Counted from the first letter of the stretch, positions 3,413 through 18,011 are shown. The stretch: DNA of 32,000 bases from Corynebacterium glutamicum ATCC 13032 (GCF_000011325.1 NC_003450.3:540001-572000), one strand, 5' to 3'. The notes: generated from the sequence alone by a model not told the origin. Numbers and translations: made by a program.

Positions 3413-4329
3413 TATCCGAGCTCGCCCGCATAGTGGTTAAACTTGTTGCCCCGAACAAAACCAGCAAGGAAAATACCTGAATCCTGCGCCGCCTCGATTG
3501 CCAGCGATGTTGCAGCACCAACAGCGATTACACCCGAAATTCCAGCCATGGCAGCCTTTTGGACAAGCTCAAAAGACGCCCTAGAACTCATCACCAAAAT
3601 AGTGTTTTCCAAGGGGAGCTTTCCCGCCATCAGCATGTTTCCTATAACTTTGTCAGCTGCGTTATGCCGACCGACATCCTCTCGAATAATCAACATCTCA
3701 CCATCAAGCGTGGCCAAACCAGCAGCATGAACCCCACCAGTTTTGTCGAAAATCTTCTGCTTCGACTTCAACTTATCTGGCAACGACACAATCATCCGAG
3801 GATCCGGTGTAATCGGCGTAATGGGCCAGCCCTTCTTGTTCATCAACTGCTCAATAGACGTCGTGCCACAAACACCACAAGCAGACGTAGTCAGCACATT
3901 GCGTTGGGCTGCCACGAGGTTTAGTTCGCGTACCGGTTGGAAAGTTGGGATGTGGAGTGCTTCGTGTTGGCTGCCTTCGGGATTATGGGAGGGATTCTGG
4001 ACGGGATCCCGGGCCGGATTGTCTTTGGGGATGACATCAAGTTCTAAGACGTTGTACGTATTTTGATTATCTGGGCCAACAGCTCCTGCACAATAGCGGG
4101 CGGTAAAAACCTCAGAAGCATCCGTGATCAGACCTTCTGACAAGAGGAGGCCATGCACCAACTCAATATCATGGCCGGGCGTGCGCATAGTGGTGGTAAG
4201 CGCAGTGCCATTAACCCGAATTTCTAGAGGCTCCTCCACCGCAACAGTATCCGGACGAGTGTTAACAAAAACTTGCTCGTCAGTGGACACAACGCGTGGG
4301 ACCTGCAAGTTTTGGGTAATCCGACCCAT
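3412..4329 (-). CDS. fdhD: Formate dehydrogenase accessory sulfurtransferase FdhD
   Basis: 305-aa ORF with FdhD features: EEPLEIRVNG, TTSACGVCG cysteine motif, GGVHAA, C-terminal SSRASFELVQKA. It lies next to fdhF. Confidence 0.9.
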   Translation of the reverse strand: MGRITQNLQVPRVVSTDEQVFVNTRPDTVAVEEPLEIRVNGTALTTTMRTPGHDIELVHGLLLSEGLITDASEVFTARYCAGAVGPDNQNTYNVLELDVIPKDNPARDPVQNPSHNPEGSQHEALHIPTFQPVRELNLVAAQRNVLTTSACGVCGTTSIEQLMNKKGWPITPITPDPRMIVSLPDKLKSKQKIFDKTGGVHAAGLATLDGEMLIIREDVGRHNAADKVIGNMLMAGKLPLENTILVMSSRASFELVQKAAMAGISGVIAVGAATSLAIEAAQDSGIFLAGFVRGNKFNHYAGELG

Positions 4330-4331
4330 TT

Positions 4332-4670
4332 TTATTTAGCCTCCGGGTAATTTTTAGCGATGATTTCTTGAAGATGCAGAGCATTAACCAACGTGGACTC
4401 GGCCCAATCATCAGTGCTTGTTCCAGAACGGCCAGCAGCTAAACCAAGAAGGAAAGACGTCATTGGTGCCGCTGGTCGAGAAGGGCCATGCGCAACATCA
4501 CGCGTGAGATTCAACAGGTGGGGGACAACCTCTGCGAGAATGTCTGGATCAATATCCAGCTCTGTGCACACAGTGTCGAGCCATTGATACATTTTCTGCA
4601 TCTTCTCGGCTTCGTTGTTTTTGCTTGGGGTGGTGTCCACAGTGAAACTCGTTTCTGATGATGGCTGCAA
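4332..4670 (-). CDS. Small conserved actinobacterial protein between fdhF and fdhD (DUF6457-like by recollection); start uncertain
   Basis: ORF reading ...MQKMYQWLDTVCTELDIDPDILAEVVPHLLNLTRDVAHGPSRPAAPMTSFLLGLAAG... It ends 2 nt before the fdhD start. The 4670 start is a TTG with no SD. Internal ATGs at 4601 or 4592 are more plausible starts. Confidence 0.6.
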   Translation of the reverse strand: MQPSSETSFTVDTTPSKNNEAEKMQKMYQWLDTVCTELDIDPDILAEVVPHLLNLTRDVAHGPSRPAAPMTSFLLGLAAGRSGTSTDDWAESTLVNALHLQEIIAKNYPEAK

Positions 4671-4680
4671 TTGTAAAACT

Positions 4681-4730
4681 GCAATTATAAATAAGCCCGC
4701 ATCCTCGTTTATTTAAACAAGGAAGCGGGC
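4681..4730 (-). terminator. Candidate weak terminator or attenuator downstream of fdhF
   Basis: On the minus strand, gcccgcttcct (4730-4720) pairs with aggatgcgggc (4705-4695) with one mismatch, followed by ttatttataatt. Because the downstream genes are closely spaced, read-through is likely. Confidence 0.35.
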
Positions 4731-4753
4731 GCGGAAAATTCCCTGGTGTTTTT

Positions 4754-7042
4754 CTAAGAAGCAGTACGTCCTGTTGCTTCAAGGCGAACCACAACTGACT
4801 TGGACACTGGAGTGTTGGATTTTTCAGCTACTGAATCCAATGGAACCAATACGTTGGCCTCAGGGAAATACGTGGTGACGCAGTCCCTCGCGGTGTCATA
4901 TTCCACCACTCGGAAATTCGGTGCTCGGCGTTCGCCATCATCAAAGACAGAGACGATATCGACGATGTCTCCATCCTTGAGACCACGTTGCTTACAATCT
5001 TGAGGATTGACGAACACTACGCGGCGACCATTGCGAACACCGCGGTAGCGGTCATCCAGACCGTAAATCGTGGAGTTGTATTGATCATGTGAACGTACCG
5101 TGTTCATAAGCAAATAGTCCTTGGGTAGCTCAATCACATTGGTTTCATTAACCGTCAATTGGGCCTTGCCATTGGATGTGTTGAAGATGCGCTCACGAGG
5201 TCCGTTGGGGAGGAGGAATCCACCGGGGTTGTCGATGCGACGGTTGAAATCGTGGAACCCAGGAATGGTGGCCTCGATGTGATCGCGGACCACATCGTAG
5301 TTATCAATCATCGGCTGCCAGAAGGCATCACCGAAGGTCTGCTTACCGATGGTTCCAATGATGTCGCATTCGGACTTCAAATTCAGATCCTTGTTGGCGG
5401 TTCGTTTACCAGTGGATGCGTGAACAGCGCCGGCAGAATCCTCAACTGTCACACGCTGGACGCCTGACTTTTGGACATCCTTATCTGTTCGAGCAATCAC
5501 CGGAAGGATAAGTGACTGCTCACCAGGCCATGCTTGTGAACCATTGGGCTTGGTCGACAGATGCACCGTCAGCTCATTGGATTCCATGCCCTTTTCGACA
5601 ACAGACGTATCTGAGGACACTCGAACAAGGTTGCCACCGAGGGAGAGAAAGAACTTGGTCTTGCCTTCGCGCATGGCTCGCAGGGAATTTACCGTGTCGA
5701 AGCCGTGCTTGCGGGGCACATCGAAACCAAACTCGTTTTCAAGAGCAGCAAGGAATGCCTCCGGCATTTTCTCCCAAATACCCATGGTTCGATCACCCTG
5801 GACGTTTGAGTGCCCACGAAGCGGGGCAGTGCCTGCGCCAGGCTTACCAATATTTCCAGTAAGCAGCAGGAAGTTCACCATTTCACGGATGGTGTACACA
5901 GCGTTCTTATGCTGGGTGACCCCGAGAGTCCATGACACCACCACGGTGTCAGACTTTTCCACCATGTCAGCGGCCTTGTTGATCTCCGCTGCCGTCAGAC
6001 CGCATCCCTTGAGCAGAACCTCATCATCGAGTGATTTGAGGTGCTCGATGGTTTCATCCACACCTGAACAGAATTTATCCAAGAATGCATGATCTAGGGC
6101 ATCTCTACGGATGAGTTCCTTGTTGAGCGCCTGGAAGAATGCGCGGTCTCCATCAAGACGGATCTGCAAGTATTCATCAGCAAGTTTGTCTGAAATGCTC
6201 AACGCGCCCTTGACTGATTGGGGCTCACGGAATTTCATCAGACCGGTCTCTGGCATGGGGTTCAGCGCCAGAATCTTGCCACCGTTTTCCTTCAATTCTT
6301 TGAAAGCCGTCAACGCACGTGGGTGGTTGGTGCCCGGGTTTTGTCCCACGGAAATCAACAAATCAGTGTTGTAGAAATCCTCCATCACCACGGATCCCTT
6401 GCCCAAACCCAAGGTCTCACCCAAGGCAGTACCGGTGGACTCGTGGCACATGTTTCCACAGTCTGGAAGATTATTTGTGCCAAGTCGGCGGGCTAGAAGC
6501 TGCAGCATATAAGCCGGCTCATTGGGTGCTCGACCAGAGGTGTAAAACACCGCTTCATCTGGCTCGATCTCGCGGAGCTTCGACGCAATGATCGCAAATG
6601 CACGATCCCAAGAAATAGGGCGGTAGTGATCATCGCCAGAAGAACGATCATAAAACATGGGCTCGGTGATTCGGCCACGCTTTCCCAGCCAGTGATCGGT
6701 CTTTTCCCGCAGATCATAAATAGAATGCTCTGCCCAGAACTCTTTGCCGGCACGATCAGGTGTTGTTTCCTCGGCGACCGCCTTGGCACCGTTCTCGCAG
6801 AACTCAACCACACCAAGGTTGGCAGTGGAAGGCTCAGGCCAAGCACAACCAGGACAGTCGATGCCGCCTGGTTTATTCATGGTGAGCAACGGCAGCAGGG
6901 CACGATTCGGAACAGCATGCTGGAGCGCATGCAAAACGCCTGGCACACCAGCAGCAGAAGTAATGCGCCGTCCCACATCCGGATCATCAAATTCATTCGC
7001 GGTGGGATTCACGTTCGAAATCTCAGTTGGAGGGGTTGTCAT
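4754..7042 (-). CDS. fdhF: Molybdopterin-dependent formate dehydrogenase, FdhF/YdeP family
   Basis: 762-aa ORF with an N-terminal Cys cluster (CPGCAWPE...FCENG), a molybdopterin oxidoreductase core (GNMCHEST, NPGTNHPR, VTQH) and a C-terminal MopB-CT-like barrel. It is clustered with fdhD. Confidence 0.9.
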   Translation of the reverse strand: MTTPPTEISNVNPTANEFDDPDVGRRITSAAGVPGVLHALQHAVPNRALLPLLTMNKPGGIDCPGCAWPEPSTANLGVVEFCENGAKAVAEETTPDRAGKEFWAEHSIYDLREKTDHWLGKRGRITEPMFYDRSSGDDHYRPISWDRAFAIIASKLREIEPDEAVFYTSGRAPNEPAYMLQLLARRLGTNNLPDCGNMCHESTGTALGETLGLGKGSVVMEDFYNTDLLISVGQNPGTNHPRALTAFKELKENGGKILALNPMPETGLMKFREPQSVKGALSISDKLADEYLQIRLDGDRAFFQALNKELIRRDALDHAFLDKFCSGVDETIEHLKSLDDEVLLKGCGLTAAEINKAADMVEKSDTVVVSWTLGVTQHKNAVYTIREMVNFLLLTGNIGKPGAGTAPLRGHSNVQGDRTMGIWEKMPEAFLAALENEFGFDVPRKHGFDTVNSLRAMREGKTKFFLSLGGNLVRVSSDTSVVEKGMESNELTVHLSTKPNGSQAWPGEQSLILPVIARTDKDVQKSGVQRVTVEDSAGAVHASTGKRTANKDLNLKSECDIIGTIGKQTFGDAFWQPMIDNYDVVRDHIEATIPGFHDFNRRIDNPGGFLLPNGPRERIFNTSNGKAQLTVNETNVIELPKDYLLMNTVRSHDQYNSTIYGLDDRYRGVRNGRRVVFVNPQDCKQRGLKDGDIVDIVSVFDDGERRAPNFRVVEYDTARDCVTTYFPEANVLVPLDSVAEKSNTPVSKSVVVRLEATGRTAS

Positions 7043-7164: not shown

Positions 7165-7315
7165 GTCGTTTGATACTGCAAAGTACCGAATCGCACTGTT
7201 AGTTTTTCAAGGGAAGCCGGTTAACAATCCGGCGCTGACCCGCAACCGTAGATCACCTTCGCCTGGAGTTTTCACGCAAAGGGGACAAGCCGGATTACTT
7301 GGAAAACTGACATTG
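7165..7315 (+). promoter_or_regulatory. Cobalamin (B12) riboswitch-like leader, copy 1
   Basis: The core at 7211-7250, GGGAAGCCGGTTAACAATCCGGCGCTGACCCGCAACCGTA, matches the conserved cobalamin aptamer core (AGGGAA..GGT..AA.CC...GCTGAC.CGCA.C.GTA). A B12-box-like AAGCCGGATTACTTGG lies at 7287-7302. A possible P1 pairs 7201-7206 agtttt with 7303-7308 aaaact. TAAAAT at 7152-7157 is a possible -10. Confidence 0.75.
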
Positions 7316-7457
7316 ACTTAGAACCTTTTTGTCGTGGACTACGAAAAGCTTGCATCTTCAAATTCTGCGCACAAAGTGTTCTAAGACGACGTCTGCCCAT
7401 CGGCGCTCTAATGCACATTACAGCGTTTACAGAATTGAAAATGAAAGGTTCAAAGCC

Positions 7458-8087
7458 TTGACCATTACTTTTAGCCGCGTTGCTCTGACCACCCTGGCAG
7501 TCACCGCAACCACTTTGTCCCTGAGCACTGCTGCGAATGCACAGTCTTCCTTGTTGGATAAGACTCTTGATGCCCGTCAGTGCATCGATGCAGACAACGT
7601 CTGGGTCTCAGTTGACTATGGTGCAGATTCCGAAAAAGAACCAGAGGGCGCATGTGCCACCGAGTTCACTGATGGTGTTGTAGCTCTTGAATCTGCTGGG
7701 TTCAAACTGACCTTTGACGAATCTGAAATGGGCAAATACATGACCGGTATCAACGGAGTTGTTCCTGATTGGGTTGAAACTGGAACTTACTGGAGTTACT
7801 ACTCTGGTGAAGTCGCAGATGATTACAGCGTGGACTACACCTACTACGAGGTTGGTGCATCTAATTCTGAACCTGAAGGTGGAACTGTTGAGGCTTGGGT
7901 TGTTGGCACCGGCGAGGAAACACCAGCACTCGAGACTCTTCCTGAAACTCCAGCAGCAACCGGATCTTCTGAAGACGGCGGCTGGATTGCAGTCATCGCA
8001 GGTCTTCTCGCACTGATCGGTGGTGGAGTTGCAGCTTTGTACCAGGGCTTGATCACTATCCCAGGTCTGGTTCTGCCTAAGTTTTAA
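7458..8087 (+). CDS. Secreted, C-terminally anchored DUF4430-like (transcobalamin beta-domain-like) protein
   Basis: In-frame TTG at 7458 preceded by GAAAGG. Signal peptide TITFSRVALTTLAVTATTLSLSTAANA. The domain carrying C..V.V, AGF, YWSYY and GTVEAW is paralogous to 11851-12927. C-terminal hydrophobic anchor WIAVIAGLLALIGGGVAALY. The ORF-track start at 7329 would run into the riboswitch. Confidence 0.75.
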   Translation: MTITFSRVALTTLAVTATTLSLSTAANAQSSLLDKTLDARQCIDADNVWVSVDYGADSEKEPEGACATEFTDGVVALESAGFKLTFDESEMGKYMTGINGVVPDWVETGTYWSYYSGEVADDYSVDYTYYEVGASNSEPEGGTVEAWVVGTGEETPALETLPETPAATGSSEDGGWIAVIAGLLALIGGGVAALYQGLITIPGLVLPKF

Positions 8088-8114: not shown

Positions 8115-8156
8115 AGTGCCCACCGACCCTTCAAGATCGGTGGGCACTTTAGGTTT
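8115..8156. terminator. Bidirectional terminator between convergent units
   Basis: 12-bp perfect stem (8115-8126 agtgcccaccga against 8137-8148 tcggtgggcact). T-rich flanks follow on both strands (ttaggttt on plus, cttgtttg on minus). Confidence 0.7.
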
Positions 8157-8183: not shown

Positions 8184-8990
8184 TTAGACCCGAGGCACCC
8201 CGGCCTCCCCGAAGTCACGCTCGACGCCGAAAGCGGCGCGGCGGCTGGCGCGTCGTAAAGCACCTAAAACGGGTTTGGCTGTGAGCAGTAATAGCACTGA
8301 GGTGAAGAAGGCGCGGCCGAGATCCCAACCCATGGATGTGGTGAGGCAGAACAGCATGAAGGTGTGGAGGTTTTCCAGGACGGGCGCGCCGGGTGTGAAG
8401 GAAAGCCCGCTGGTGACACCGATGGCGTAGGGCCAGAAGCTCATGTTCATCATGGTTCCGTAGCCGAGTGAAGAGACGATGGCGTATAGGACGATGATGA
8501 GCATTTCCTTTTTGCCGCGTACTTGGGGGAGTAGGCCGGCGCCGAAGCTGACCCAGGCGGCTGCGAGCATTTGGTAGGGGAGCCACGGTCCGATTCCTGC
8601 GGTGAGCAGCGCGGATGCGAACAGTCCGGTGTTGCCGAGGATGAATCCGAAGCCGGGTCCGAAGGCTCGTCCGCCGAGGATGAGGACAAAGAAGACTGCT
8701 TCAAAGCCTGCTGCGCCGGCACCGAATGGTCGGACTACGGCAACCATGGCGGTGAGGACGCCGAGCATGGCTACGGCTTTAACGTCGAATCCGTTTTCAC
8801 TGATTTCGGCGATGACAGCGGCCAGCACGAGGGGAATGACGATCGCGATGTAGAGGGGCGCTTGGGCTTTGTCGGACAGGAAGGATTCCGGGTTGACGAT
8901 CAGCGGCCAGAAGAAAATCACGATGCTCAAAACCGCAAGGAAGCTTAAGGTGAGGAAGGTTTTGGGCTTGAGTGTGATGGCGTTGATCAT
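8184..8990 (-). CDS. Polytopic membrane protein, putative substrate (S) component of the ECF-type transporter
   Basis: 268-aa, Gly/Ala-rich ORF with 6 or more predicted TM segments. Its start overlaps the ATPase stop (ATGA at 8987-8990). It is the last gene of the riboswitch operon. No direct family recognition. Confidence 0.65.
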   Translation of the reverse strand: MINAITLKPKTFLTLSFLAVLSIVIFFWPLIVNPESFLSDKAQAPLYIAIVIPLVLAAVIAEISENGFDVKAVAMLGVLTAMVAVVRPFGAGAAGFEAVFFVLILGGRAFGPGFGFILGNTGLFASALLTAGIGPWLPYQMLAAAWVSFGAGLLPQVRGKKEMLIIVLYAIVSSLGYGTMMNMSFWPYAIGVTSGLSFTPGAPVLENLHTFMLFCLTTSMGWDLGRAFFTSVLLLLTAKPVLGALRRASRRAAFGVERDFGEAGVPRV

Positions 8991-10696
8991 GAGATTTCAC
9001 CATGCCCTAGCGCAGCTTTCACGGCCGAGACTGTGAGCCAGTGTGATTCCTCTTGGATGCCGGCGGTGATTTTTGCGACTTGTGGGGCGTAAGCCGGTGA
9101 TGCGGGGAGGATTTCTACGGCTGTGCCATCGGAGATGATCTTTCCAGAGGCCATAAACAACACTCGGTCGGCGCACAGTGCAGAGAATTCCACGTCGTGG
9201 GTGACCACCAAAATGGCGTGGCCGTCGTCTGCGAGTTGTTGGAAGGAGCGGGCGAGGGATTTCTTGCCGTCGTAGTCTAGGCCGCGGGTGGGTTCGTCGA
9301 AAAATACCACGCGGGGTTTTGCGGCGAGTTGGATGGACAGCGCGAGGGAGAGCTTTTGGCCTTCTGATAGATCACGTGGGTGGAGATGGTCCGGGATATT
9401 CGGGACCAGTGAATCCAGGATTTCCCGCGTGGTGCCGGCGGGTGCTGCGGCATCTTTATCAGAGCGTGCGAGCTCTGCATGCACGGTTGATTCATACAAA
9501 ATATCGGTCGGTGTTTGCGGAACCATGGACACAAGATTGCGCCGCTTGGCGGGCTTTAAAGTTTTGGGGTCTGTCCACGAAAATCCCGCGGCCTCATCAA
9601 GCACCTGCACCGAGCCCTGATTTCTAGTCCCTGAACCTTGTAAAGCCCACAGCAGGGATGATTTTCCGCAGCCGTTTCGGCCCATGAGCACGGTAATTTC
9701 ACCGGAGTTGAGATTCAAGTTCACGCCGTCAACGGCACGGATTTCGGGGAAATCAACCATGATATCTTCGGCGATCAAAAGTGGCTGGACAGCGTGGTTG
9801 TGTAATTTGTTCACCACTAAACCACGCTGATACAGGCGTTTGCGCATGTCAGCGGAGTGTGCGCGTGCATCGCGGATCGATAGCGGTAGGGGAGCCCAGC
9901 CAGCCCAGCGTCCTAATTCCACAATGGGTGGTGCCACATCAGAATCAGCCATGATTTCTTCCGGCGTCCCAACAGTGACGTGCCCATCAGCGCCCACATG
10001 CGCCACGCGGTCCACGTACTGCAGTACGCGCTCGATGCGGTGTTCAGCAAGCACTACGGTCATCGCCAAGTCATGAGCCAGCTTGGTTACGGTTGCCAGC
10101 ACATCCTCGGCACCATTAGGGTCCAAAGCGCTGGTTGGTTCATCCAAGATAATCAGCGCGGGGCGAGTGGTCAGCACCGCGCCAATCGCCACGCGCTGCT
10201 GCTCACCACCAGATAGTTCCGCCAATGGCACGTATCGCAGCTCCGCGATGCCTAAAAGATCAAGGGTTTCCTCTACGCGCTTGCGCATGACCGCAGGTGG
10301 GAGCCCTAATTGCTCCATGCTGTAGGCAAGTTCTTCTTCAACCGTGTTGGTGATAAAACTTGCCGCCGGATCTTGCCCAACGACGCCGACCACGTCGGAA
10401 AGCATGCGTGGTGGGAAATCACGCGTATCCCGGCCGACCACGCGCACGCGCCCATCAAGTCGGCCGCCGGTCGCATGCGGCATCGCGCCGGACATCGCGT
10501 TCAGCAGCGTCGATTTGCCGGAGCCGGTGCGCCCCACAACCAGCAGGATTTCGCCTTCAAAAAGCGTCAGATTCACGTCGCTGATCTGCGGCGCCGCCAG
10601 CGTGCGCTCATCGTCATAATACGAGGCAGCGACGCTTTCCAGTTCCAGCACGGGGTCCGTCGACCACGCAGTGCGCGCGCTAAAAGGAGCACTCAT
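8987..10696 (-). CDS. Fused double ABC ATPase (ECF A-A' type, CbiO-like)
   Basis: Two ABC cassettes: Walker A GRTGSGKST and GRNGCGKSS; signatures LSGGEQQRV and LSEGQKLSL (degenerate); Walker B LILDEPTSALD and VFFDEPTRGLD. Confidence 0.93.
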   Translation of the reverse strand: MSAPFSARTAWSTDPVLELESVAASYYDDERTLAAPQISDVNLTLFEGEILLVVGRTGSGKSTLLNAMSGAMPHATGGRLDGRVRVVGRDTRDFPPRMLSDVVGVVGQDPAASFITNTVEEELAYSMEQLGLPPAVMRKRVEETLDLLGIAELRYVPLAELSGGEQQRVAIGAVLTTRPALIILDEPTSALDPNGAEDVLATVTKLAHDLAMTVVLAEHRIERVLQYVDRVAHVGADGHVTVGTPEEIMADSDVAPPIVELGRWAGWAPLPLSIRDARAHSADMRKRLYQRGLVVNKLHNHAVQPLLIAEDIMVDFPEIRAVDGVNLNLNSGEITVLMGRNGCGKSSLLWALQGSGTRNQGSVQVLDEAAGFSWTDPKTLKPAKRRNLVSMVPQTPTDILYESTVHAELARSDKDAAAPAGTTREILDSLVPNIPDHLHPRDLSEGQKLSLALSIQLAAKPRVVFFDEPTRGLDYDGKKSLARSFQQLADDGHAILVVTHDVEFSALCADRVLFMASGKIISDGTAVEILPASPAYAPQVAKITAGIQEESHWLTVSAVKAALGHGEIS

Positions 10697-11844
10697 TAAA
10701 CTTCGGCCCTTTCTGGGCTATTTATTGCTTTTCGACGCTTGACCCTCACTTTGTTCTTCGGCAAGCGGGGCGTCAAGAATCCTGGCATCGTCGCCACAAC
10801 AAGTCCTGCCACAACGAGCAACGGAACGGTGTCTGGCATATGCAAAGGAACCCAGGTGGTGATCATGGAACCTGGATCAAGGTATCGTGTCAGCGCAGCC
10901 ATGAGCAGCGGAATCACACCTGTGATGCACACAAGCCATTCCGCAGCACCCCAAGGCAACTGATCAAAAGTGGTGGATGTTTTTCTATGTGAAGCAACGA
11001 CCAACGAAATGATCAAGAAGCCCACGCCGGTAATAAACACCGGAACGGCAACGAACATCGGTGATGATGCATCTAAGACCACAAACAGACCAACGGTCAC
11101 GCCGAGTATTCCGAATGCACCAAAAATAGAGGTCACACGCTGTTGGAATTTGGATACATGAGCCTGCCTGCCATAACCACGGGCATCCATGGAATTAGCC
11201 AGGGCCAAAGACCTATCCAAAGTGTCCTGGAAAACCGGCATCAAAATCCGCGCGAAACCACGAACACCTTTGGCATCATCACCACGCAAGGTTCGTGCAC
11301 GATTAATGCGGAACGCCGACTCAGCCATCTGAGGTGCAATGGAAATACCGATGACCACCGCAGTTCCCAGTTCGCCCAATGCGCCAGGCAACGATTTGAG
11401 CAGCTTCTTGGGATCCGCCAAAGAGTTCGCAGCACCCACCGCCACGATCATCGTTCCAAGCGTTAAGCCTTGCGTCGTCGCGATGATCAGACCCTCGAGA
11501 TACACCGTGCCAAACACGTGGATACCCGCAGCCCATTCCGGCAACTGCACCGGCGGGATCCGAAACAGTTCAATGGTGCCAATTTTTGCTCCCACCACAA
11601 TGTGCATGACCAACCGGTACACCACGAGCCAACCCGCGATCATCAAATAGATCGGGAAAGCACGCGACCACGGCGATGACCCACGACGGTTAAACACCAC
11701 AAAACACAACGTGGCAAAAGTGAGCGCCAAAATATAAGGATTGTTGGTCATGCTGGCACAACCAGCAATACCCAACGCCCACACCCACCACGCCCAGGGA
11801 TGAACCATCCGCCGGGACAGCACATATCGCTCAATCCATTTCAC
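10696..11844 (-). CDS. ECF transporter T component (CbiQ/EcfT family) with an extra C-terminal membrane domain
   Basis: Both coupling-helix Ala-Arg-Gly type motifs are present (INRARTLRG and SMDARGYG). At 382 aa it is longer than I recall for EcfT proteins. About 4 additional hydrophobic segments follow the second motif. There is a 1-nt overlap with the ATPase start. Confidence 0.85.
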   Translation of the reverse strand: MKWIERYVLSRRMVHPWAWWVWALGIAGCASMTNNPYILALTFATLCFVVFNRRGSSPWSRAFPIYLMIAGWLVVYRLVMHIVVGAKIGTIELFRIPPVQLPEWAAGIHVFGTVYLEGLIIATTQGLTLGTMIVAVGAANSLADPKKLLKSLPGALGELGTAVVIGISIAPQMAESAFRINRARTLRGDDAKGVRGFARILMPVFQDTLDRSLALANSMDARGYGRQAHVSKFQQRVTSIFGAFGILGVTVGLFVVLDASSPMFVAVPVFITGVGFLIISLVVASHRKTSTTFDQLPWGAAEWLVCITGVIPLLMAALTRYLDPGSMITTWVPLHMPDTVPLLVVAGLVVATMPGFLTPRLPKNKVRVKRRKAINSPERAEV

Positions 11845-11850
11845 GAAGCT

Positions 11851-12927
11851 TTAACCCTGGACCTCTGAACGACGAATCGCCCACGCCGCCACAGCAGACG
11901 CTGAAACCAAGGAAATGACAGCCAGTGTGAGTCCAATGATCCATCCCTGAGCAGAAGAATCCACCGTGCCTGTGGCGTACGTCTGCTGCGTCGAACCCTC
12001 AGCCATGACGTCTCCATCTTGGCCCGCAGGCGCCATAAGAACCTGCGTGGTCATCGGATCAACTTCAGGAGCTTCTGCCACCGCTGTTGCCTGCGGTTGG
12101 CTATTTGCTTCACCAGCCCCAGCTGGGGCTTGGACAGCAGCAGTGGTCTTAGCGGCTGCTGCAGCAACCAAGTTCTCGTACTGACCTTTAGTAATCGAGT
12201 TTCCTTCAGAATCCTGATACACCAATACCTCATTAGGGTTCTCAGGGTTTACCTCAGCAGTGGGTTCAGCTGCTTGTCCTCTTGCCGAACCAGCTCCAGC
12301 CCCTGCGATAGGAGCTTCAGTAGTTTCAGTGGGCTCTTCGTCACCCCCTAAATCGGCGATAGGGGACTCGGAGGTTGGGGTTGTGGTGATGAAATCATTT
12401 GGATCAAAATCAATTTTGTAATCCGGATCCGCGGAGTCTAACCCCAACTCCGCCTGAGATTTACTCACCGGGATCGCGCCGGGACGATCAGTATCTCCCC
12501 AATACCACGCTTCAACAGTGCCGGGTTTGGGGTAGTAGAGGAAAGCTCCAAGGTTGCTGTATTCCCATTCATCTCCGCCGAGGGGAGCATGCCAATAAGA
12601 CCAATAAGCTTCAGCAGGTGATGCGGTCATGCAATCGTCCACATCAGGACCTGGGAAATCATTGATTCGGCACAAGAATTCTGGAAACTGAACGGTGGTT
12701 TCCACATCAAATCCGGCATCAAGAAGCGTTTGATAGCCATTTCCGCCGGCGTCAGCACAGCCGATGGTGTTGCCCTCAACCATCACTGTCACTTGGTCGT
12801 CTTCACAAGGCGTGGTCAAGGCGTGCGCAGAAGGAACCCATGGCGATATGGCAAGAACAATCCATAGTGCGACTGCAGCTGCAAAAGACTTCAGCGACAG
12901 GTGAAAAGTTGAGGTTCGAGACATCAC
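11851..12927 (-). CDS. Secreted, C-terminally anchored DUF4430-like (transcobalamin beta-domain-like) protein with a long acidic/Pro-Ala-Thr linker
   Basis: Signal peptide ...AAVALWIVLAISPWVPSAHA. N-terminal domain with C.DDQVTVMV, AGF, YWSYW and GTVEAWYWG. Low-complexity linker, then C-terminal TM WIIGLTLAVISLVSASAVAAWAIRR. The start is GTG 12927 or, more likely, ATG 12924 (GAGAAG 7 nt upstream). Confidence 0.75.
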   Translation of the reverse strand: MMSRTSTFHLSLKSFAAAVALWIVLAISPWVPSAHALTTPCEDDQVTVMVEGNTIGCADAGGNGYQTLLDAGFDVETTVQFPEFLCRINDFPGPDVDDCMTASPAEAYWSYWHAPLGGDEWEYSNLGAFLYYPKPGTVEAWYWGDTDRPGAIPVSKSQAELGLDSADPDYKIDFDPNDFITTTPTSESPIADLGGDEEPTETTEAPIAGAGAGSARGQAAEPTAEVNPENPNEVLVYQDSEGNSITKGQYENLVAAAAAKTTAAVQAPAGAGEANSQPQATAVAEAPEVDPMTTQVLMAPAGQDGDVMAEGSTQQTYATGTVDSSAQGWIIGLTLAVISLVSASAVAAWAIRRSEVQG

Positions 12928-12944
12928 TGTACTTCTCTCAGATG

Positions 12945-14129
12945 TTAAAACTGCAGGTTAGCCATCATTGGTCCCATGACACCAGCGATGGCGGCAAGGA
13001 TGGCCAAGATGGCGATGATAATTCCAGCGCCGCCAATTCCACCGGTGGATCCCTCTGAATCAGCTGGGGGAGTTGGAATTTCTGGATCTGGAGTTGGATC
13101 TACTGGGTTCGCAATGGTGATCAGTTTATCGTTGGCGTAGTTACCGCCTGCAAAACCTAATGCTGCTTGGCCAGTTGCGCGTCGAATCTGATCGCTAATC
13201 GCAGTGTTGGTTTCCTTAGCCTTCACGGTGAAAGCAAAGCCACCCTGAATCGATGGGTCTGCATCTTCGCCAAATTGAACAGATGCCAGGTATTCACGAG
13301 CCTTGAGGTAGTTTTCCTCATCGCCCGCAAGAGCAAAAGCGGATCCGACAATTCCCGTGGAGTTGGAATTCACACCGGTCCAAGTATTTTTGACACCACC
13401 GGTCTCATCCATCGTGGTGACGAGGTAATCGAGAGTGGCTTGTGTGGTTGGATCCTGCGCACCATTTGCCAGAGTCAAAGCCTGTGCAGCCATTGCAGTG
13501 ACATCGGAATCCGTGGTTTTGCATGTAGGTTCGATTGCTGAGGCTAATTGGACACCACCGTCGGAGCACACTTGAGTTTTAAGGAATTCTGTTGCGCGCT
13601 CGGCTGCTTCGGTTTCACCGACGCGGTGCAGAGCTAGAACGCCCCAGGCCTGGCTGAAGTTATTAATTGCAGTTGTGGCTTCACCATTATCTAAGTTTTT
13701 GATCTGACCGTTTTCTTGAACAGCGCTGACAAGTTGCGCGATAAAATCAGCATCTCTGACGCCGAGGGCATCTTGGAAAGCTACGGTCTTGGCTAGACGA
13801 TCGCTGAAGATGTAGTCAGAAACTGAGACATAGCCCTCGAGCTCCGGAGCAATTGCAGCATATGCAGCGTCGATCTCTGGAGAATCAGGGGCAAGCGCAT
13901 TTAGGGACAGCAACAGATCCTGATTGAGCCCAATATCTGGAGTACCTACAGGCCCAGGGATGAGGCCATTCGTTGCAAATTCTTTTTCGATGAATTGGGT
14001 AGCTAATTGAATATCCGATGATGCATCCTGTGCAGCAACGACCTGTGGAGCCAACAGGGAAACACCGGTTGCTAAAGCCACGGTTGCAGCAGACCAGCGA
14101 ATGGTTCTCTTCCCACGTAGATGAGCCAT
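12945..14129 (-). CDS. Secreted, C-terminally anchored alpha/alpha-barrel (prenyltransferase/terpenoid-cyclase-repeat-like) protein
   Basis: Signal peptide ...TVALATGVSLLAPQVVAAQD. Recurring helical-hairpin motifs (QENGQIKN, CSDGGVQL, DETGGVKNTW, SIQGGFAF). Pro-rich stalk, then TM IIIAILAILAAIAGVMGPMM. It is the first gene after riboswitch copy 2. The fold assignment is an inference. Confidence 0.65.
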   Translation of the reverse strand: MAHLRGKRTIRWSAATVALATGVSLLAPQVVAAQDASSDIQLATQFIEKEFATNGLIPGPVGTPDIGLNQDLLLSLNALAPDSPEIDAAYAAIAPELEGYVSVSDYIFSDRLAKTVAFQDALGVRDADFIAQLVSAVQENGQIKNLDNGEATTAINNFSQAWGVLALHRVGETEAAERATEFLKTQVCSDGGVQLASAIEPTCKTTDSDVTAMAAQALTLANGAQDPTTQATLDYLVTTMDETGGVKNTWTGVNSNSTGIVGSAFALAGDEENYLKAREYLASVQFGEDADPSIQGGFAFTVKAKETNTAISDQIRRATGQAALGFAGGNYANDKLITIANPVDPTPDPEIPTPPADSEGSTGGIGGAGIIIAILAILAAIAGVMGPMMANLQF

Positions 14130-14234
14130 GAAAACATGTCCTTAAAATGAATTGGAGAAATGTTCTGACCCCGCTTTAAGGCACACATTACTGCGCTTCA
14201 ATACGGGCTTCAGAACCGTAATCCTCGACGGTTT

Positions 14235-14400
14235 GGAGCCACTCATTTCTTATTCAGGTGATCCGGCTTAATGCAATACCTGGTGAAAGCGATTGCATAA
14301 TACGGTTGCGGGTCAGCTTCGGGTTCTCACCGAAATTCCCCTGAAAAAGAACGGATGGTGTCCTACACCATAAAATCACCATCGGTGCTGGTCAAATGAA
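14235..14400 (-). promoter_or_regulatory. Cobalamin (B12) riboswitch-like leader, copy 2
   Basis: On the minus strand, 14340-14301 reads GGGAATTTCGGTGAGAACCCGAAGCTGACCCGCAACCGTA, the conserved aptamer core. A short P6-like hairpin follows (tgcaat...attgca). The B12 box AAGCCGGATCACCTG lies at 14269-14255. The leader continues to ATG 14129. Confidence 0.85.
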
Positions 14401-14448
14401 AGCCCCCGTAGGGGTGGCAGGGAAAATGTAAGTTCTTGCGAAGATTTT

Positions 14449-14973
14449 TTAAGAATCTGTGGCTATCCAATAGCGTCGCATTCCACGGATCGTGGATTCA
14501 TAAACTCCACCGCACTTTTCGATGACGTTCCTGGACGCTTCGTTATCTCCTGCGACGCACAGCAAAACCTTGTCGATGCCCAAGGCCTGAGCTTCATGAA
14601 CACCGAGTTTCAGCGCTGCGGTTGCAGCACCTTTTCGACGCGCAGACGGGCGCACGCCGTAACCAATGTGGCCCGCGACTTCCAGGAGATGTTGGTTCAG
14701 CTCGTGCCTTAAAGCTAAGAATCCGACAAGAACATCGTCATCATCAACGATCCAGAAATAGCTGCAGTGCACAAAACCTTCCGGTGGTGGAACCGAAGGA
14801 TCGGCCGCGTCAGTGCGCTCCTTGAGGTAGTGGTGAAATCCTGCTTCGGAATAGTCGATGGGAAGATAGTTCTCGAAATAACCCGAGCCGTGGATGGGGC
14901 CTGATCCGAATTCTTCCAAAGCCTCTTTCCACATGGCGTGGCCTGACAAATGCGGTGAGATTAATTTGTACAT
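14449..14973 (-). CDS. GNAT-family N-acetyltransferase
   Basis: 174-aa ORF with acetyl-CoA binding motif A (VRPSARRKGAATAAL) and the typical GNAT beta-strand pattern (FWIVDDDDVLVGFLALRH). Confidence 0.85.
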   Translation of the reverse strand: MYKLISPHLSGHAMWKEALEEFGSGPIHGSGYFENYLPIDYSEAGFHHYLKERTDAADPSVPPPEGFVHCSYFWIVDDDDVLVGFLALRHELNQHLLEVAGHIGYGVRPSARRKGAATAALKLGVHEAQALGIDKVLLCVAGDNEASRNVIEKCGGVYESTIRGMRRYWIATDS

Positions 14974-15330
14974 CGGGCCAGGTTAGCAGCGCTAACCGTG
15001 CCCCGCGTGGGGCACGCGGGGGAGGGCTGATGGAGGGCGGCGTCGATAAGCGTGCTAGGAAGTTTGTGTTTTAGTGTTCACTTGCTGTACTCTGTCCGTT
15101 TGGACTTTGCACCAGAAAACTCTATAGAGCACAACGGTGTTTTAAAGATCCATGTAAACGTAAACACCTACTTTGTTGTAGGCCCCCCGCCATGAATGGC
15201 GATCCGTGTGGGAAATGGTAGCGAGCAAACCGACTATTGAGTTCGGTGAGCGTTGAGTGGCCAGAAAACACACGGTTAACGTCCAAGGTGGGAAGGGAAC
15301 CCCAACGAGAAAGGCATCAGGTCGTCTCTA

Positions 15331-15729
15331 ATGACAATGACTGATCCAATCGCCGACATGCTGTCGCGCGTGCGCAATGCTAGCAATGCGCACCACGACA
15401 CCGTGTCCATGCCATCCTCCAAGATCAAGGCAAACATCGCCGAGATCTTGAAGCAGGAAGGCTACATCGCTAACTACACCGTTGAGGATGCAAAGGTCGG
15501 CAAGACCCTGTCCCTCGAGCTGAAGTACAGCAACACCCGTGAGCGCTCCATCGCTGGTCTGCGCCGCGTTTCCAAGCCTGGTCTGCGTGTATACGCTAAG
15601 TCCACCAATCTGCCACAGGTTCTGGGCGGCCTTGGCGTGGCTATCATTTCCACGTCACAGGGCCTCCTGACCGACCGTCAGGCTACCGAGAAGGGCGTAG
15701 GCGGAGAAGTCCTCGCCTACGTCTGGTAA
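15331..15729 (+). CDS. rpsH: 30S ribosomal protein S8
   Basis: 132-aa [20 protein letters not shown]...GGEVLAYVW, canonical S8. Confidence 0.97.
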
Positions 15730-15748
15730 TAGGGAGGATTGACTAAAT

Positions 15749-16285
15749 ATGTCACGTATCGGAAAAGAACCGATCACCATCCCATCCGGTGTCGAAACCA
15801 AGATTGACGGACAGCTCGTTGAGGTTAAGGGTCCTAAGGGCACCCTGAACGTTAACGTTCCAGAGCCAATCTCCGTTGCAGTGGAAGACGGCAAGATTGT
15901 CGTCACCCGCCCGGATGATCACCGCACTAACCGTTCCCTCCACGGTCTCTCCCGCTCCCTGGTTAACAACCTGGTTGTCGGCGTCACCGAGGGCTACACC
16001 ATCAAGATGGAAATCTTCGGTGTCGGTTACCGTGTCGCGCTGAAGGGCAAGGACCTTGAGTTCTCCCTCGGCTACTCACACCCAGTTCTGATTGAAGCTT
16101 CTGAAGGCATCACTTTCGCAGTTGATGGCAACACCAAGCTTTCAGTTTCTGGCATCGACAAGCAGAAGGTTGGACAGGTCGCAGCAGTGATCCGCCGCCT
16201 GCGTAAGGACGATCCTTACAAGGGTAAGGGCATCCGCTACGAGGGTGAGCAGATCCGCCGCAAGGTCGGAAAGACGGGTAAGTAA
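15749..16285 (+). CDS. rplF: 50S ribosomal protein L6
   Basis: 178-aa [18 protein letters not shown]...GYSHPV...[10 protein letters not shown], canonical L6. Confidence 0.97.
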
Positions 16286-16288
16286 GCA

Positions 16289-16693
16289 ATGAGCAACACT
16301 GAAAACAAGCAGAAGCGCGTTTCCGTTGGCAAGGACATCGCGACTCGTCGTCGCGTTGCCCGTGCACGCCGCCACTTCCGCATCCGCAAGAACCTGCGTG
16401 GCACCCCAGAGGCTCCACGTTTGGTTGTCCACCGCTCTTCTCGCCACATGCACGTTCAGATCATCGATGACGTTGCAGGCCACACCCTGGCTGCAGCTTC
16501 TTCCATCGAGGCTGAGGTTCGCGCAACTGAGGGCGACAAGAAGGCTAAGGGCGCAAAGGTCGGTCAGCTGATCGCCGAGCGCGCTAAGGCTGCTGGTATC
16601 GAGCAGGTCGTCTTCGACCGCGCTGGTTACAAGTACCACGGCCGCGTTGCAGCTCTCGCTGACGCCGCTCGTGAAGGTGGTCTGAAATTCTAA
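16289..16693 (+). CDS. rplR: 50S ribosomal protein L18
   Basis: 134-aa ORF with [35 protein letters not shown] and C-terminal [19 protein letters not shown]. Confidence 0.97.
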
Positions 16694-16733
16694 TGATGAC
16701 CATTTCTAAGAACATCAACGGAAGGATTGCGTA

Positions 16734-17369
16734 ATGCCGGGACGTGAACGGCGTGACGGCGGACGCTCCGCCGACGACAACAAGCAAAACGATCGCAACG
16801 AGCGTCGTGGCGGAGGCCGCCGCGATGACCGTCGCAATCAGCAGCAGGACGAGCGCTCACAGTACATCGAGCGTGTAGTCACCATCAACCGTGTGTCCAA
16901 GGTCGTCAAGGGTGGTCGTCGCTTCAGCTTCACCGCACTTGTCATCGTTGGCGACGGCAAGGGAATGGTCGGTGTCGGTTACGGCAAGGCCAAGGAAGTT
17001 CCTGCCGCAATCCAGAAGGGTGCAGAAGAGGCTCGTAAGAACTTCTTCCGCGTCCCAATGGTCAACGGCACCATCACCCACCCAGTTCAGGGCGAAAAGG
17101 CAGCCGGCATCGTTATGCTGAAGCCAGCTGCTCCAGGTACCGGTGTTATCGCCGGTGGCGCAGCACGTCCAGTTCTTGAGTGCGCAGGTATCCAAGACAT
17201 CCTGTCCAAGTCCCTTGGTTCTGACAACGCTATCAACGTCGTCCACGCAACTGTGGATGGCCTGAAGCAGCTGGTCCGCCCTGAAGAGGTTGCAGCCCGC
17301 CGTGGCAAGACCATCGAAGAGGTCGCACCAGCACGTATTCTGCGTGCACGCGCAGGTCAGGAGGCGTAA
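16734..17369 (+). CDS. rpsE: 30S ribosomal protein S5 (with Arg/Asp-rich N-terminal extension)
   Basis: 211-aa ORF with the S5 core [42 protein letters not shown]. Confidence 0.97.
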
Positions 17370-17372
17370 GAA

Positions 17373-17558
17373 ATGGCGCTGAAGATTACTCAGATCAAAG
17401 GCACTGTGGGCACCAAGCCCAAGCATCGCGAAAATCTTCGTTCCCTCGGTCTGAAGCGAATCCGCCACACCGTGATCCGCCCCGATACCCCAGAGGTACG
17501 TGGCATGATCCTGGCAGTTCGCCACCTGATCGTCGTCGAAGAAGTGGCGGGGGAGTAG
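17373..17558 (+). CDS. rpmD: 50S ribosomal protein L30
   Basis: 61-aa [33 protein letters not shown]... Confidence 0.95.
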
Positions 17559-17564
17559 GTAACA

Positions 17565-18011
17565 ATGAGCGAACCAATTAAGCTCCACGATTTGCGCCCA
17601 GCAGCGGGCTCAAACAAAGCTAAGACCCGCGTTGGTCGAGGCGAAGCATCCAAGGGTAAGACTGCAGGTCGCGGTACCAAGGGTACCAAGGCACGCAAGC
17701 AGGTTTCTGCAGCATTCGAAGGTGGCCAGATGCCACTGCAGATGCGTCTTCCTAAGCTGAAGGGCTTCAAGAACCCTAACAAGGTTGACTACCAGGTAGT
17801 TAACATTGCAGATCTCGCAGAGAAGTTCCCACAGGGCGGCGACGTCAGCATTGCTGACATCGTTGCAGCAGGACTTGTCCGCAAGAACGAACTGGTTAAG
17901 GTTCTTGGCAACGGCGACATCAGCGTCAAGCTGAACGTCACCGCTAACAAGTTCTCCGGCTCTGCCAAGGAAAAGATCGAAGCCGCTGGCGGCTCCGCAA
18001 CCGTGGCATAA
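17565..18011 (+). CDS. rplO: 50S ribosomal protein L15
   Basis: 148-aa ORF with [34 protein letters not shown], canonical L15. Confidence 0.97.

Follow-up and report, generated by a model that had tools for sequence, protein, structure and literature searches.

Exported toroid and beta-grasp proteins encoded with a B12-riboswitch-controlled ECF transporter in Corynebacterium glutamicum: a candidate split transcobalamin

Gene content of the cg0625 operon

The 32,000-nucleotide stretch of Corynebacterium glutamicum ATCC 13032 analyzed here (NC_003450.3:540001-572000; hereafter the window, in whose numbering all positions are given) carries an operon in which an adenosylcobalamin (AdoCbl, B12) riboswitch precedes two genes for exported proteins, cg0625 and cg0624, followed by genes for an energy-coupling factor (ECF) transporter (Table 1). 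Predicted folds, genome context, and gene fusions among relatives suggest that the two proteins most probably work like a split version of mammalian transcobalamin. The same idea had been put forward in an initial annotation made from the sequence alone, and its description of the genes holds: both open reading frames (ORFs), of 394 and 358 aa, exist exactly as given, each product has a signal peptide and a single C-terminal hydrophobic anchor with neither LPXTG nor lipobox (hydropathy and motif scan), and the pair lies behind the B12 riboswitch that it numbered copy 2 (RF01482, 52.4 bits) and ahead of an ECF-type importer comprising EcfT, EcfAA′, and a candidate S-component. The stop codon of cg0625 at 12945 and the new start of cg0624 at 12927 specify two separate polypeptides. 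At 100% identity, the 394-aa product matches 'putative secreted protein [C. glutamicum MB001]', and the published names are 'putative terpenoid cyclase' for cg0625, 'hypothetical membrane protein' for cg0624, and 'ABC-type cobalt transporter, permease' for cg0623 (PMC2807442). A megablast search against a plasmid collection gave no match.

Among the transporter genes, cg0623 matches CbiQ in Pfam (E=5.6e-6; 26.6 bits, cut-off 25), encodes seven hydrophobic segments as judged by hydropathy, and keeps its position within the operon in related loci. The fused EcfA-EcfA′ protein contains two ABC_tran domains (9e-49; Pfam), and its best NCBIfam matches, TIGR04520 (4e-80) and TIGR04521 (1e-79), fall below the equivalog cut-offs. 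The candidate S-component gives a weak match to ECF_S_folT_fam (1.4e-3; NCBIfam) and is kept as the final gene of the operon in related loci; its homologue at locus L042 (loci are given L numbers and representative proteins P numbers below) has a weak match to PF12822 (ECF_trnsprt), and no PDB relative of it was detectable by sequence. Neither CbiM nor CbiN was seen in the ECF gene set, and the S-component is of a different kind. The presence in one operon of EcfT, two ECF-type ATPase domains, and an S-component gene predicts a dedicated ECF transporter, in which the S-component assignment is the weakest link.

Table 1. Features of the B12 locus in the window, and riboswitch matches upstream of toroid genes at related loci
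Feature	Position	Strand	Basis or score
Sub-threshold AdoCbl-like riboswitch, leader of third component (copy 1 of the initial annotation)	7185..7355	+	RF01482
Third exported component, paralogue of the cg0624 SLBB-like domain	7458..8087	+	Translation, BLASTP
15-bp-stem hairpin between two convergent transcription units	8115..8148	.	Pattern match
Candidate S-component, 268 aa, 6 hydrophobic segments, last operon gene	8184..8990	-	Weak ECF_S match and hydropathy
Fused EcfA-EcfA′ ATPase, two ABC domains	8987..10696	-	Pfam, TIGR04520/TIGR04521
cg0623, EcfT/CbiQ-type transmembrane component	10696..11844	-	Pfam CbiQ
cg0624, exported SLBB-like protein, 358 aa, GTG start	11851..12927	-	ORF translation
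Predicted transcobalamin-beta-like (SLBB) domain of cg0624, residues 37-160	12448..12819	-	AF2 and Foldseek
cg0625, exported toroid protein, 394 aa, ATG start	12945..14129	-	ORF translation
AdoCbl (B12) riboswitch aptamer, operon leader (copy 2 of the initial annotation)	14203..14364	-	RF01482
Promoter-like site TTGACC-17-TATGGT, directly upstream of riboswitch	14367..14395	-	Consensus scan
Riboswitch match, L003	Upstream of toroid gene		54.3 bits
Riboswitch match, L002	Upstream of toroid gene		47.4 bits
Riboswitch match, L001	Upstream of toroid gene		34.8 bits (RF00174)
Riboswitch match, L029	Upstream of toroid gene		48.8 bits
Riboswitch match, L025	Upstream of toroid gene		44.1 bits
Riboswitch match, L015	Upstream of toroid gene		41.9 bits
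Riboswitch match, L030	Upstream of toroid gene		34.2 bits
Riboswitch match, L016	Upstream of toroid gene		20.9 bits

The cg0625 protein is modeled as an exported alpha6/alpha6 toroid

The cg0625 protein comprises a signal peptide (residues ~1-33), a toroid (38-335), a Pro-rich stalk (336-365), and a C-terminal hydrophobic helix (367-385), and it ends in ...GPMMANLQF; the Kyte-Doolittle profile contains one N-terminal (14-32) and one C-terminal (367-385) hydrophobic segment. Assignment as a lipoprotein was rejected, given that the first 45 residues contain no Cys and a lipobox is absent, as was assignment as a Tat substrate, since GKRTIRW, read from the sequence, is not a twin-arginine motif.

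The AlphaFold2 (AF2) model, built from a 21-sequence alignment, consists of stacked paired helices with a predicted local distance difference test score (pLDDT) >90 over residues 38-335 and a predicted template modeling score (pTM) of 0.75. When compared to the PDB using Foldseek, it matched squalene-hopene cyclases (8pak, 3.4e-7), RabGGTase-beta (3dsu_B, 3e-6), MstE, and other alpha6/alpha6 toroids, with 157 matches below 1e-3. A profile of the cg0625 family, which includes the distant P0066, itself matching PF13243, found squalene-cyclase-like domains among PDB sequences (5e-6); cg0625 alone found nothing in the same sequences (phmmer). Thus, the alpha/alpha barrel of the prenyltransferase/terpenoid-cyclase type that had been read from the sequence is borne out by the model, and cg0625 can be assigned with confidence, on predicted structure, to alpha6/alpha6 toroids of the terpene-cyclase/prenyltransferase kind. 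The four motifs on which that reading was based (QENGQIKN, CSDGGVQL, DETGGVKNTW, and SIQGGFAF) are present, and the helical-hairpin motifs fall where short strand pairs or bridges part successive helices in the model; we take them for the turns, x-[DEQ]-x-GG-[VF], that belong to the prenyltransferase repeat.

Pfam detected no match to PF00432, PF13243, PF13249, or PF01122 in cg0625 at E<=1. At most two of the 21 aligned relatives match any one of PF13243, PF13249, and PF00432 (best E 4.4e-8), which is consistent with these being the distant P0066 and one other, and relatives in which the toroid is fused to another domain score 16-19 bits with prenyltransferase-type models, under the gathering score of 26. 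In the family alignment, C188 and C203 are invariant, as are D207 and D209 of a DxDxTA remnant. The DxDD(TA) motif of class II cyclases is absent: the corresponding residues are D207-S-D209-V-T-A in cg0625 and DPDS, DVDG, or DVDS in relatives. By motif and Pfam membership rules, cg0625 is thus predicted not to be a class II terpene cyclase.

The tail of the Corynebacterium toroid proteins (12945-13060) consists of GSSxGG, a hydrophobic helix, and then G..GP...(F)LPxQF-COOH, with no basic residues. At the same place, toroid homologues from other lineages (P0030-P0065) have an LPXTG/LAXTG sortase signal and a basic tail, the variants in distant homologues being LPRTG, LARTG, LATTG, or LAITG. The shared Corynebacterium tail may be an unrecognized sorting or anchoring signal.

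The cg0624 protein carries a tethered, predicted beta-grasp domain

The cg0624 protein is composed of a signal peptide (residues 1-36, ending in AHA and followed by LT), an SLBB-like domain (~37-160), a linker (161-325), and a transmembrane anchor (330-348) followed by RRSEVQG. As in cg0625, there is one N-terminal (10-28) and one C-terminal (330-348) hydrophobic segment (Kyte-Doolittle). The long acidic Pro/Ala/Thr linker noted in the initial annotation has a net charge of -24 over residues 161-325 (18% Ala, 11% Thr, 8% Pro), and the quoted motifs C.DDQVTVMV, AGF, YWSYW, and GTVEAWYWG are all found. Neither cg0624 nor cg0625 has an L[PA]xTG motif or a lipobox, and L[PA]xTG is absent from every window protein examined. 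The cg0624 anchor is an ordinary transmembrane helix followed by RR, unlike the tail of the Corynebacterium toroids.

Residues C41, C57, C86, and C99 are invariant in the cg0624 family alignment. In the AF2 model, residues ~41-170 are predicted at pLDDT ~80-95, and the remainder is disordered save for a small strand-and-helix element (233-264) and the terminal helix. The domain has the element order b-b-a-b-b-b-b-b (E45-50, E54-59, H64-70, E75-77, E85-88, E109-115, E120-124, E137-143; DSSP assignment of the AF2 model). The transcobalamin-like clade of the SLBB superfamily is set apart by a two-strand insert immediately following the helix, the superfamily itself having been defined by Burroughs, Balaji, Iyer and Aravind in 2007 (PMC1796856); since E75-77 and E85-88 come right after the helix, the predicted domain fits this clade.

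The best PDB matches of the domain in Foldseek are transcobalamin beta domains (7qbg_C, 2.8e-3; 5no0, 5.7e-3; 5np4), with E-values from 2.8e-3 to 2e-2 and probabilities of 0.97-1.0. Template modeling (TM) scores against the isolated beta domains 5no0 and 5np4 are 0.55-0.60 (5no0: 0.60 on the target, probability 1.0). Haptocorrin (4kki), intrinsic factor (2pmv), and a DUF4430 structure (3u7z) follow, with other SLBB proteins (Wza SLBB domains) and generic beta-grasp proteins ranked lower. For the modeled domain, this ranking is specific, despite the modest E-values.

The linker contains two conserved islands. One, at residues ~225-262 (12139-12255), has the consensus NP[ED]NP[ND]EVLVYxDxEGNxI[ST]KxxYExL and is modeled as a strand and a helix at pLDDT ~80; the other, at ~290-300 (12028-12060), is DP[KM][ST]TxV[ML]xAP, a strand. 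These islands might serve in docking to the toroid or to the transporter.

A third component is encoded by a convergent gene

A paralogue of the cg0624 SLBB-like domain, which the initial annotation had overlooked, constitutes a third exported component. Its ORF is listed from 7329, and its start is probably the TTG at 7458, after a GAAAGG ribosome-binding site. The product has a signal peptide (...STAANA, followed by QSS) and a C-terminal hydrophobic helix ending in ...LVLPKF; it shares 29% identity over 100 aa with residues 37-165 of cg0624 (E=9e-6, BLASTP), as well as the motifs AGF, YWSY, and GTVEAW. The gene is convergent to the ECF operon and lies behind the sub-threshold riboswitch at 7185..7355. 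L001-L003, L010, L015, and L029 likewise have an additional, convergent SLBB gene following the S gene.

The tail of the paralogue (7930-8087) resembles the toroid tail, ending in ...LVLPKF here and ...LVLPKI in L002; the L003 copy diverges.

Domain fusions and conserved gene order among relatives

An exhaustive HMMER profile search for the cg0624 domain family retrieved 2,706 representative proteins at E<=1e-3, including 906 at E<=1e-10. The genomic loci examined, by hmmsearch on all stop-to-stop ORFs, were 38 metagenomic loci, 3 from Corynebacterium, and 1 found via P0066; the contig search with the toroid profile yielded only the 3 Corynebacterium loci, its back-translated patterns being too specific.

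Five of the 150 best cg0624-family representatives are long, and four of these are fusions: P0097, P0114, and P0121 consist of an SLBB-like domain, a toroid, and an anchor, and P0132 has the arrangement SLBB-toroid-SLBB. Compared to the cg0625 family profile using HHalign, the toroids of two of these fusions gave probabilities of 97.9% (P0121, E 4.8e-13) and 99.5% (P0132, E 1.4e-22). At L015, L029 (6342-8849), and L032, a single ORF encodes a toroid followed by an SLBB domain, the order seen in transcobalamin, while L013 and L024 have an SLBB-then-toroid fusion followed by a second SLBB gene. In loci long enough for the whole cassette, the order toroid, SLBB, EcfT, EcfAA′, S was found in three Corynebacterium genomes or metagenome-assembled genomes, in metagenomic loci, and at L042, and the toroid and SLBB genes are adjacent wherever both were seen. 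Fusion in both orders, together with adjacency, is expected for domains that act together on one ligand, as in transcobalamin (PMC1796856). The S-component at L042 is fused to a tetrapyrrole methylase (TP_methylase) and is followed by CbiJ, suggesting that in B12 producers the cassette is linked to corrin biosynthesis. The family is apparently actinobacterial, the taxonomy being fixed only for Corynebacterium and, via NCBIfam names, Streptomyces.

Three further arrangements were observed. A 1,375-aa ORF at L006 (3116-7240, minus strand) contains an SLBB domain plus two toroid domains. P0174 is a tandem double-SLBB protein and the sole member with even a weak DUF4430 match. The distant L042 (6151-7888, minus strand, and 12990-15435, plus strand) has, besides the methylase-fused S-component and CbiJ noted above, a second, divergent toroid and SLBB pair behind an above-threshold Cobalamin riboswitch (39.5 bits).

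Riboswitches and B12-responsive control

The operon leader (14364..14203, minus strand) is a full-length match to RF01482, above its gathering score of 50 (E=4.7e-7). The leader of the third component (29.4 bits against the same gathering score, E=0.11) also matches the full-length model. No terminator-like hairpin was found between the aptamer and the cg0625 ATG, suggesting that control of the operon would be translational.

Matches to the cobalamin riboswitch clan (CL00101) immediately precede the toroid gene, and are correctly oriented, at all eight loci compared (3/3 from Corynebacterium and 5/5 distant; Table 1); the gathering score of the respective family is attained only at L003 and L001. 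With Rfam at its gathering threshold, riboswitches in 15 distant loci were seen only beside accessory genes, the operon leaders appearing at a permissive E-value threshold. Since each distant match is weak when taken alone, riboswitch conservation rests on positional consistency. Matches also precede the extra SLBB gene at L002 (23.7 bits), L015 (30.2 bits), L029 (29.8 bits), and L010 (36.5 bits, above the gathering score).

A 2024 preprint states that C. glutamicum ATCC 31269 'lacks cobalamin riboswitches' (PMC11071462), which conflicts with the 52.4-bit RF01482 match at 14203-14364 and the weak copy at 7185-7355; the discrepancy may stem from a strain difference or from a pipeline that missed the AdoCbl family. 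In a study of MprA, the motif TTTTAAGGAC was tabulated for cg0625 among the MprA-regulated genes, and MprA binding upstream of cg0625 was reported (PMC12113857). This motif occupies 14138-14147 (minus strand), 9-18 nt upstream of the cg0625 ATG, and contains the likely Shine-Dalgarno sequence AAGGA, so that the reported MprA site overlaps the ribosome-binding site downstream of the riboswitch.

Comparison with known systems

The mammalian proteins transcobalamin, intrinsic factor, and haptocorrin (2bb5, 2pmv, 4kki) resemble the predicted C. glutamicum system in being extracellular and in combining an alpha6/alpha6 toroid with a beta-grasp domain that has two strands after the helix, and relatives of cg0624 and cg0625 exist as single chains with the two domains, some of them arranged N to C as in transcobalamin. 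In contrast, C. glutamicum has two (three with the paralogue) membrane-tethered polypeptides with no detectable sequence similarity to transcobalamin, the cg0625 toroid is structurally nearer to terpene cyclases and prenyltransferases, and the proteins would serve an ECF transporter, whereas transcobalamin uses receptor-mediated endocytosis. Class II cyclases and prenyltransferase beta subunits (8pak, 1sqc, 3dsu_B) share with cg0625 the alpha6/alpha6 toroid and the x-[DEQ]-x-G-G-[VF] hairpin turns; however, cg0625 is exported and anchored, has a degenerate DxDD motif (DSDV), and is encoded in a transporter operon.

The same five-gene layout is found in Streptomyces coelicolor as SCO2321-SCO2325, which carry the SEED label 'predicted cobalamin ECF transporter with additional components'. 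Matches to SCO2321_fam and SCO2322_fam link the pair to the adjacent S. coelicolor genes so named: cg0625 scores 49.1 bits with SCO2321_fam (NF053823; cut-off 300) and its relatives score 61-83 bits, while SLBB relatives score 21-45 bits with SCO2322_fam (NF040672; cut-off 85) and cg0624 itself has no match. Because these scores are far under the cut-offs, the Corynebacterium proteins appear to form a separate subfamily. The NCBI names of the SCO2321 and SCO2322 families carry no function.

Like ECF-CbrT of Lactobacillus delbrueckii, the C. glutamicum operon appears to encode a cobalamin ECF-type ABC importer with EcfT, two ATPase domains, and a membrane S-component. ECF-CbrT reportedly works with a shared ECF module and lacks accessory proteins outside the cytoplasm; the C. 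glutamicum system differs in its fused ATPases and in its two or three additional exported proteins.

The closest precedent is a 2007 prediction that bacterial transcobalamin-like SLBB domains and alpha/alpha toroids cooperate to scavenge B12, made for a clade of secreted or anchored proteins that are combined with a toroid, are often accompanied by a second SLBB paralogue, adjoin CbiO/CbiQ, and occur in hosts without B12 synthesis (PMC1796856). All of these contextual features are found at the C. glutamicum locus, and cg0624 and cg0625 fit, on their modeled structures, the structural and contextual definition of the clade. Unlike the fusions described for that clade, mainly from Firmicutes and archaea, the C. 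glutamicum SLBB domain is split from the toroid, two SLBB paralogues lie under two riboswitches, and the cg0624 family is unseen by the DUF4430 model and has four invariant cysteines. By their profile scores, the proteins are classified outside the Pfam DUF4430 and Cobalamin_bind families and the NCBIfam SCO2321/SCO2322 families. In a literature search, neither this system nor any bacterial SLBB-plus-toroid protein was found to have been studied by binding, structural, or genetic methods. The initial annotation overstated the novelty of a concept predicted in 2007 (PMC1796856). Relative to that prediction, the differences are a large family invisible to DUF4430, the placement of the domains on separate, individually tethered polypeptides, and the two SLBB paralogues under two riboswitches.

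Proposed mechanism and alternative explanations

Taken together, the data favor, with moderate confidence, the view that cg0625 and cg0624 capture corrinoids outside the cytoplasm for a dedicated ECF importer that is repressed by B12. Sec would export both proteins, and a single C-terminal helix would tether each to the outer face of the cytoplasmic membrane. An acidic tether of ~165 residues would let the cg0624 domain range through the envelope, while cg0625 would stay near the membrane on a stalk of ~30 residues; the third, shorter SLBB paralogue would be made from its convergent, separately riboswitch-controlled gene. The SLBB domain and the toroid would then close on one cobalamin or cobamide in the manner of the transcobalamin domains, only as separate polypeptides, and the ligand would be passed to the membrane S-component (8184-8990) for import driven by EcfT together with the EcfAA′ fusion ATPase. 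An abundance of AdoCbl would cause the riboswitch to switch off the operon, probably at translation initiation. We infer joint clamping, the identity of the ligand, and hand-off to the S-component, and the two-polypeptide clamp is less certain than the general role in B12 capture.

Growth of C. glutamicum metE mutants on cobalamin instead of methionine (PMC1590026) indicates that the organism imports B12, and it has been categorized as salvaging B12, not making it de novo (PMC11071462). An extracytoplasmic location is in line with the invariant Cys pairs in cg0624 and cg0625 and with the sortase signals on distant toroid homologues. Both proteins have entries in the proteome columns of a study on the response to pH, where their transcripts are also listed together with that of cg0623 (PMC2807442).

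Several results weigh against this view. The profile checks proposed in the initial annotation failed: HMMER found no match to PF14478, PF01122, or PF00432 in cg0624 or cg0625. PF14478 (DUF4430; gathering score 23.8 bits) had no match at E<=10 in cg0624, its isolated domain, the paralogue, or 23 close or 25 diverse relatives, the best match in the wider family being the tandem-SLBB protein P0174 (16.3 bits, E=0.013), and PF01122 matched neither cg0625 nor 21 relatives at E<=1. Searches of PDB sequences with cg0624 and its family profile (phmmer, hmmsearch) found no cobalamin binder. HHalign comparison with human transcobalamin (409/409 identical to 7qbf_A) gave probabilities of 0.2 for the cg0624 family against the beta domain and 0.3 for the cg0625 family against the alpha domain; the pairings looked topologically sensible (AGF/GGF, YWSYW/EFWQLL, DxDxTAMA/SVDTAAMA) but were given no weight. 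In Foldseek, the beta-domain matches of cg0624 all have E-values above 1e-3 and the beta-grasp is a common fold, while transcobalamin is absent among the best 50 matches of cg0625, whose closest folds are enzymes. All five distant leader matches are below the Rfam gathering score. Hand-off to the S-component is only loosely precedented, since ECF transporters are defined by needing no soluble binding proteins, and the nearest cases are NikK/NikL and CbiN in metal ECF systems (PMC2667541). Finally, the CbiJ gene and methylase-fused S-component at L042 suggest that producers could use the cassette for cobalt or a corrin precursor. The claim that the cg0624 domain is DUF4430/transcobalamin-beta thus holds for the predicted fold and not for the sequence, and the proposed structural comparison ranked transcobalamin first for the cg0624 domain and outside the best 50 for cg0625. 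Overall, the split-transcobalamin interpretation is partly supported, being strong on fold, context, and fusions and failing on sequence profiles.

The resemblance of the toroid to enzymes more than to transcobalamin is also what would be seen if only the SLBB domains bound corrinoid and the toroid were a membrane-proximal dock, a chaperone, a wall-associated scaffold, or unrelated to ligand contact. One of the best cg0624 matches, 5np4, is an isolated human beta domain bound to cyanocobalamin, the C. glutamicum locus has two SLBB paralogues per toroid, tandem SLBB-only proteins such as P0174 exist, and the extra stand-alone SLBB genes have riboswitch matches of their own. This explanation is nevertheless unlikely, given that the toroid and SLBB domains are fused in several lineages and in both orders and are otherwise adjacent wherever both were seen. 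Structural similarity to cyclases and prenyltransferases has a more literal reading as well, in which cg0625 modifies an envelope isoprenoid, working as an active class II terpene cyclase or prenyltransferase-like enzyme, and is connected with the transporter incidentally or through regulation. Database names ('terpene cyclase/mutase family protein', 'prenyltransferase/squalene oxidase repeat-containing protein', 'putative terpenoid cyclase') and the invariance of D207 and D209 would agree with it; however, a cleavable signal peptide and a C-terminal anchor mark cg0625 as an exported protein, DxDD has degenerated to DSDV (to D-x-D-[SG] in relatives), none of the Pfam models for cyclases or prenyltransferases matches cg0625 at E<=1, NCBIfam cyclase models give 18-34 bits on relatives against cut-offs >300, and both synteny, which is strict, and fusion tie the toroid to the SLBB domain and the ECF genes, leaving such an enzyme barely credible.

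The nature of the substrate was considered in the same way. Import of cobalt, another metal, or a non-cobalamin tetrapyrrole or corrin precursor, with the exported proteins as accessory factors like NikK/NikL or CbiN, would accord with the annotation of cg0623 as an ABC-type cobalt transporter component (PMC2807442, PMC12113857), with the control of cobalt transporters by B12 riboswitches in producers (PMC9600381), and with the L042 cassette beside CbiJ, where the S-component is fused to TP_methylase; a report on L. sakei also mentions an ECF-like heme system and a transcobalamin-like protein. The lack of CbiM/CbiN, an S-component of a different kind, and the salvage of exogenous cobalamin by C. 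glutamicum make this improbable, and a 300-residue toroid with a transcobalamin-beta-like beta-grasp domain suits a large organic ligand, not an ion. Even if the ligand is B12, the exported proteins might hold it at the surface not for delivery but for sequestration, storage, competition with neighbors, or sensing. The extra SLBB gene has a transcription unit of its own, homologues elsewhere are sortase-anchored to the wall instead of being held beside the membrane, and the cg0624 tether is long. Cotranscription with, and constant adjacency to, the ECF genes and a B12 repression that fits an acquisition system render this highly improbable.

Corrinoid capture for a dedicated ECF importer therefore remains the favored reading. 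Its boldest form, offered tentatively and judged somewhat doubtful, is an ECF importer that relies on surface-tethered binding proteins, in which a clamp of the toroid and one or two SLBB domains, on tethers of different length, catches cobamides in the thick corynebacterial envelope and loads the S-component. In this form, and with the same reservation, the system could represent a major unrecognized route of B12 acquisition and a version of the transcobalamin architecture that is either independent or ancestral.

Few microbes make B12 whereas many scavenge it, and its uptake in Gram-positive and mycolate bacteria is poorly known: the characterized bacterial importers found in the literature are ECF-CbrT, BtuM, and mycobacterial BacA. 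C. glutamicum uses external cobalamin (PMC1590026), and its transporter has had no experimental assignment. If cg0620, cg0624, and cg0625 do capture B12 for the ECF module, they would give a first biochemical handle on a large, apparently actinobacterial family, show that ECF transporters can use extracytoplasmic binding proteins, and supply a bacterial counterpart for the origin of the animal toroid and beta-grasp B12 clamp. The practical value would lie in B12-dependent engineering of an industrial organism.

Flanking genes and other features

The promoter-like site is a pattern match only, with one site found against 0.7 expected. The hairpin at 8115-8148 likely serves, as judged from sequence, as a bidirectional terminator. 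The B12 locus is wedged between ordinary flanking genes (2918-7042, minus strand, and 15331-18011, plus strand). Neighbors include a GNAT acetyltransferase (14449-14973), an FdhF/YdeP-type molybdopterin oxidoreductase (4754-7042), and FdhD (3412-4329), with a small ORF of unassigned family between FdhD and an aldo/keto reductase; a run of ribosomal-protein genes, as judged from translations, also flanks the locus.

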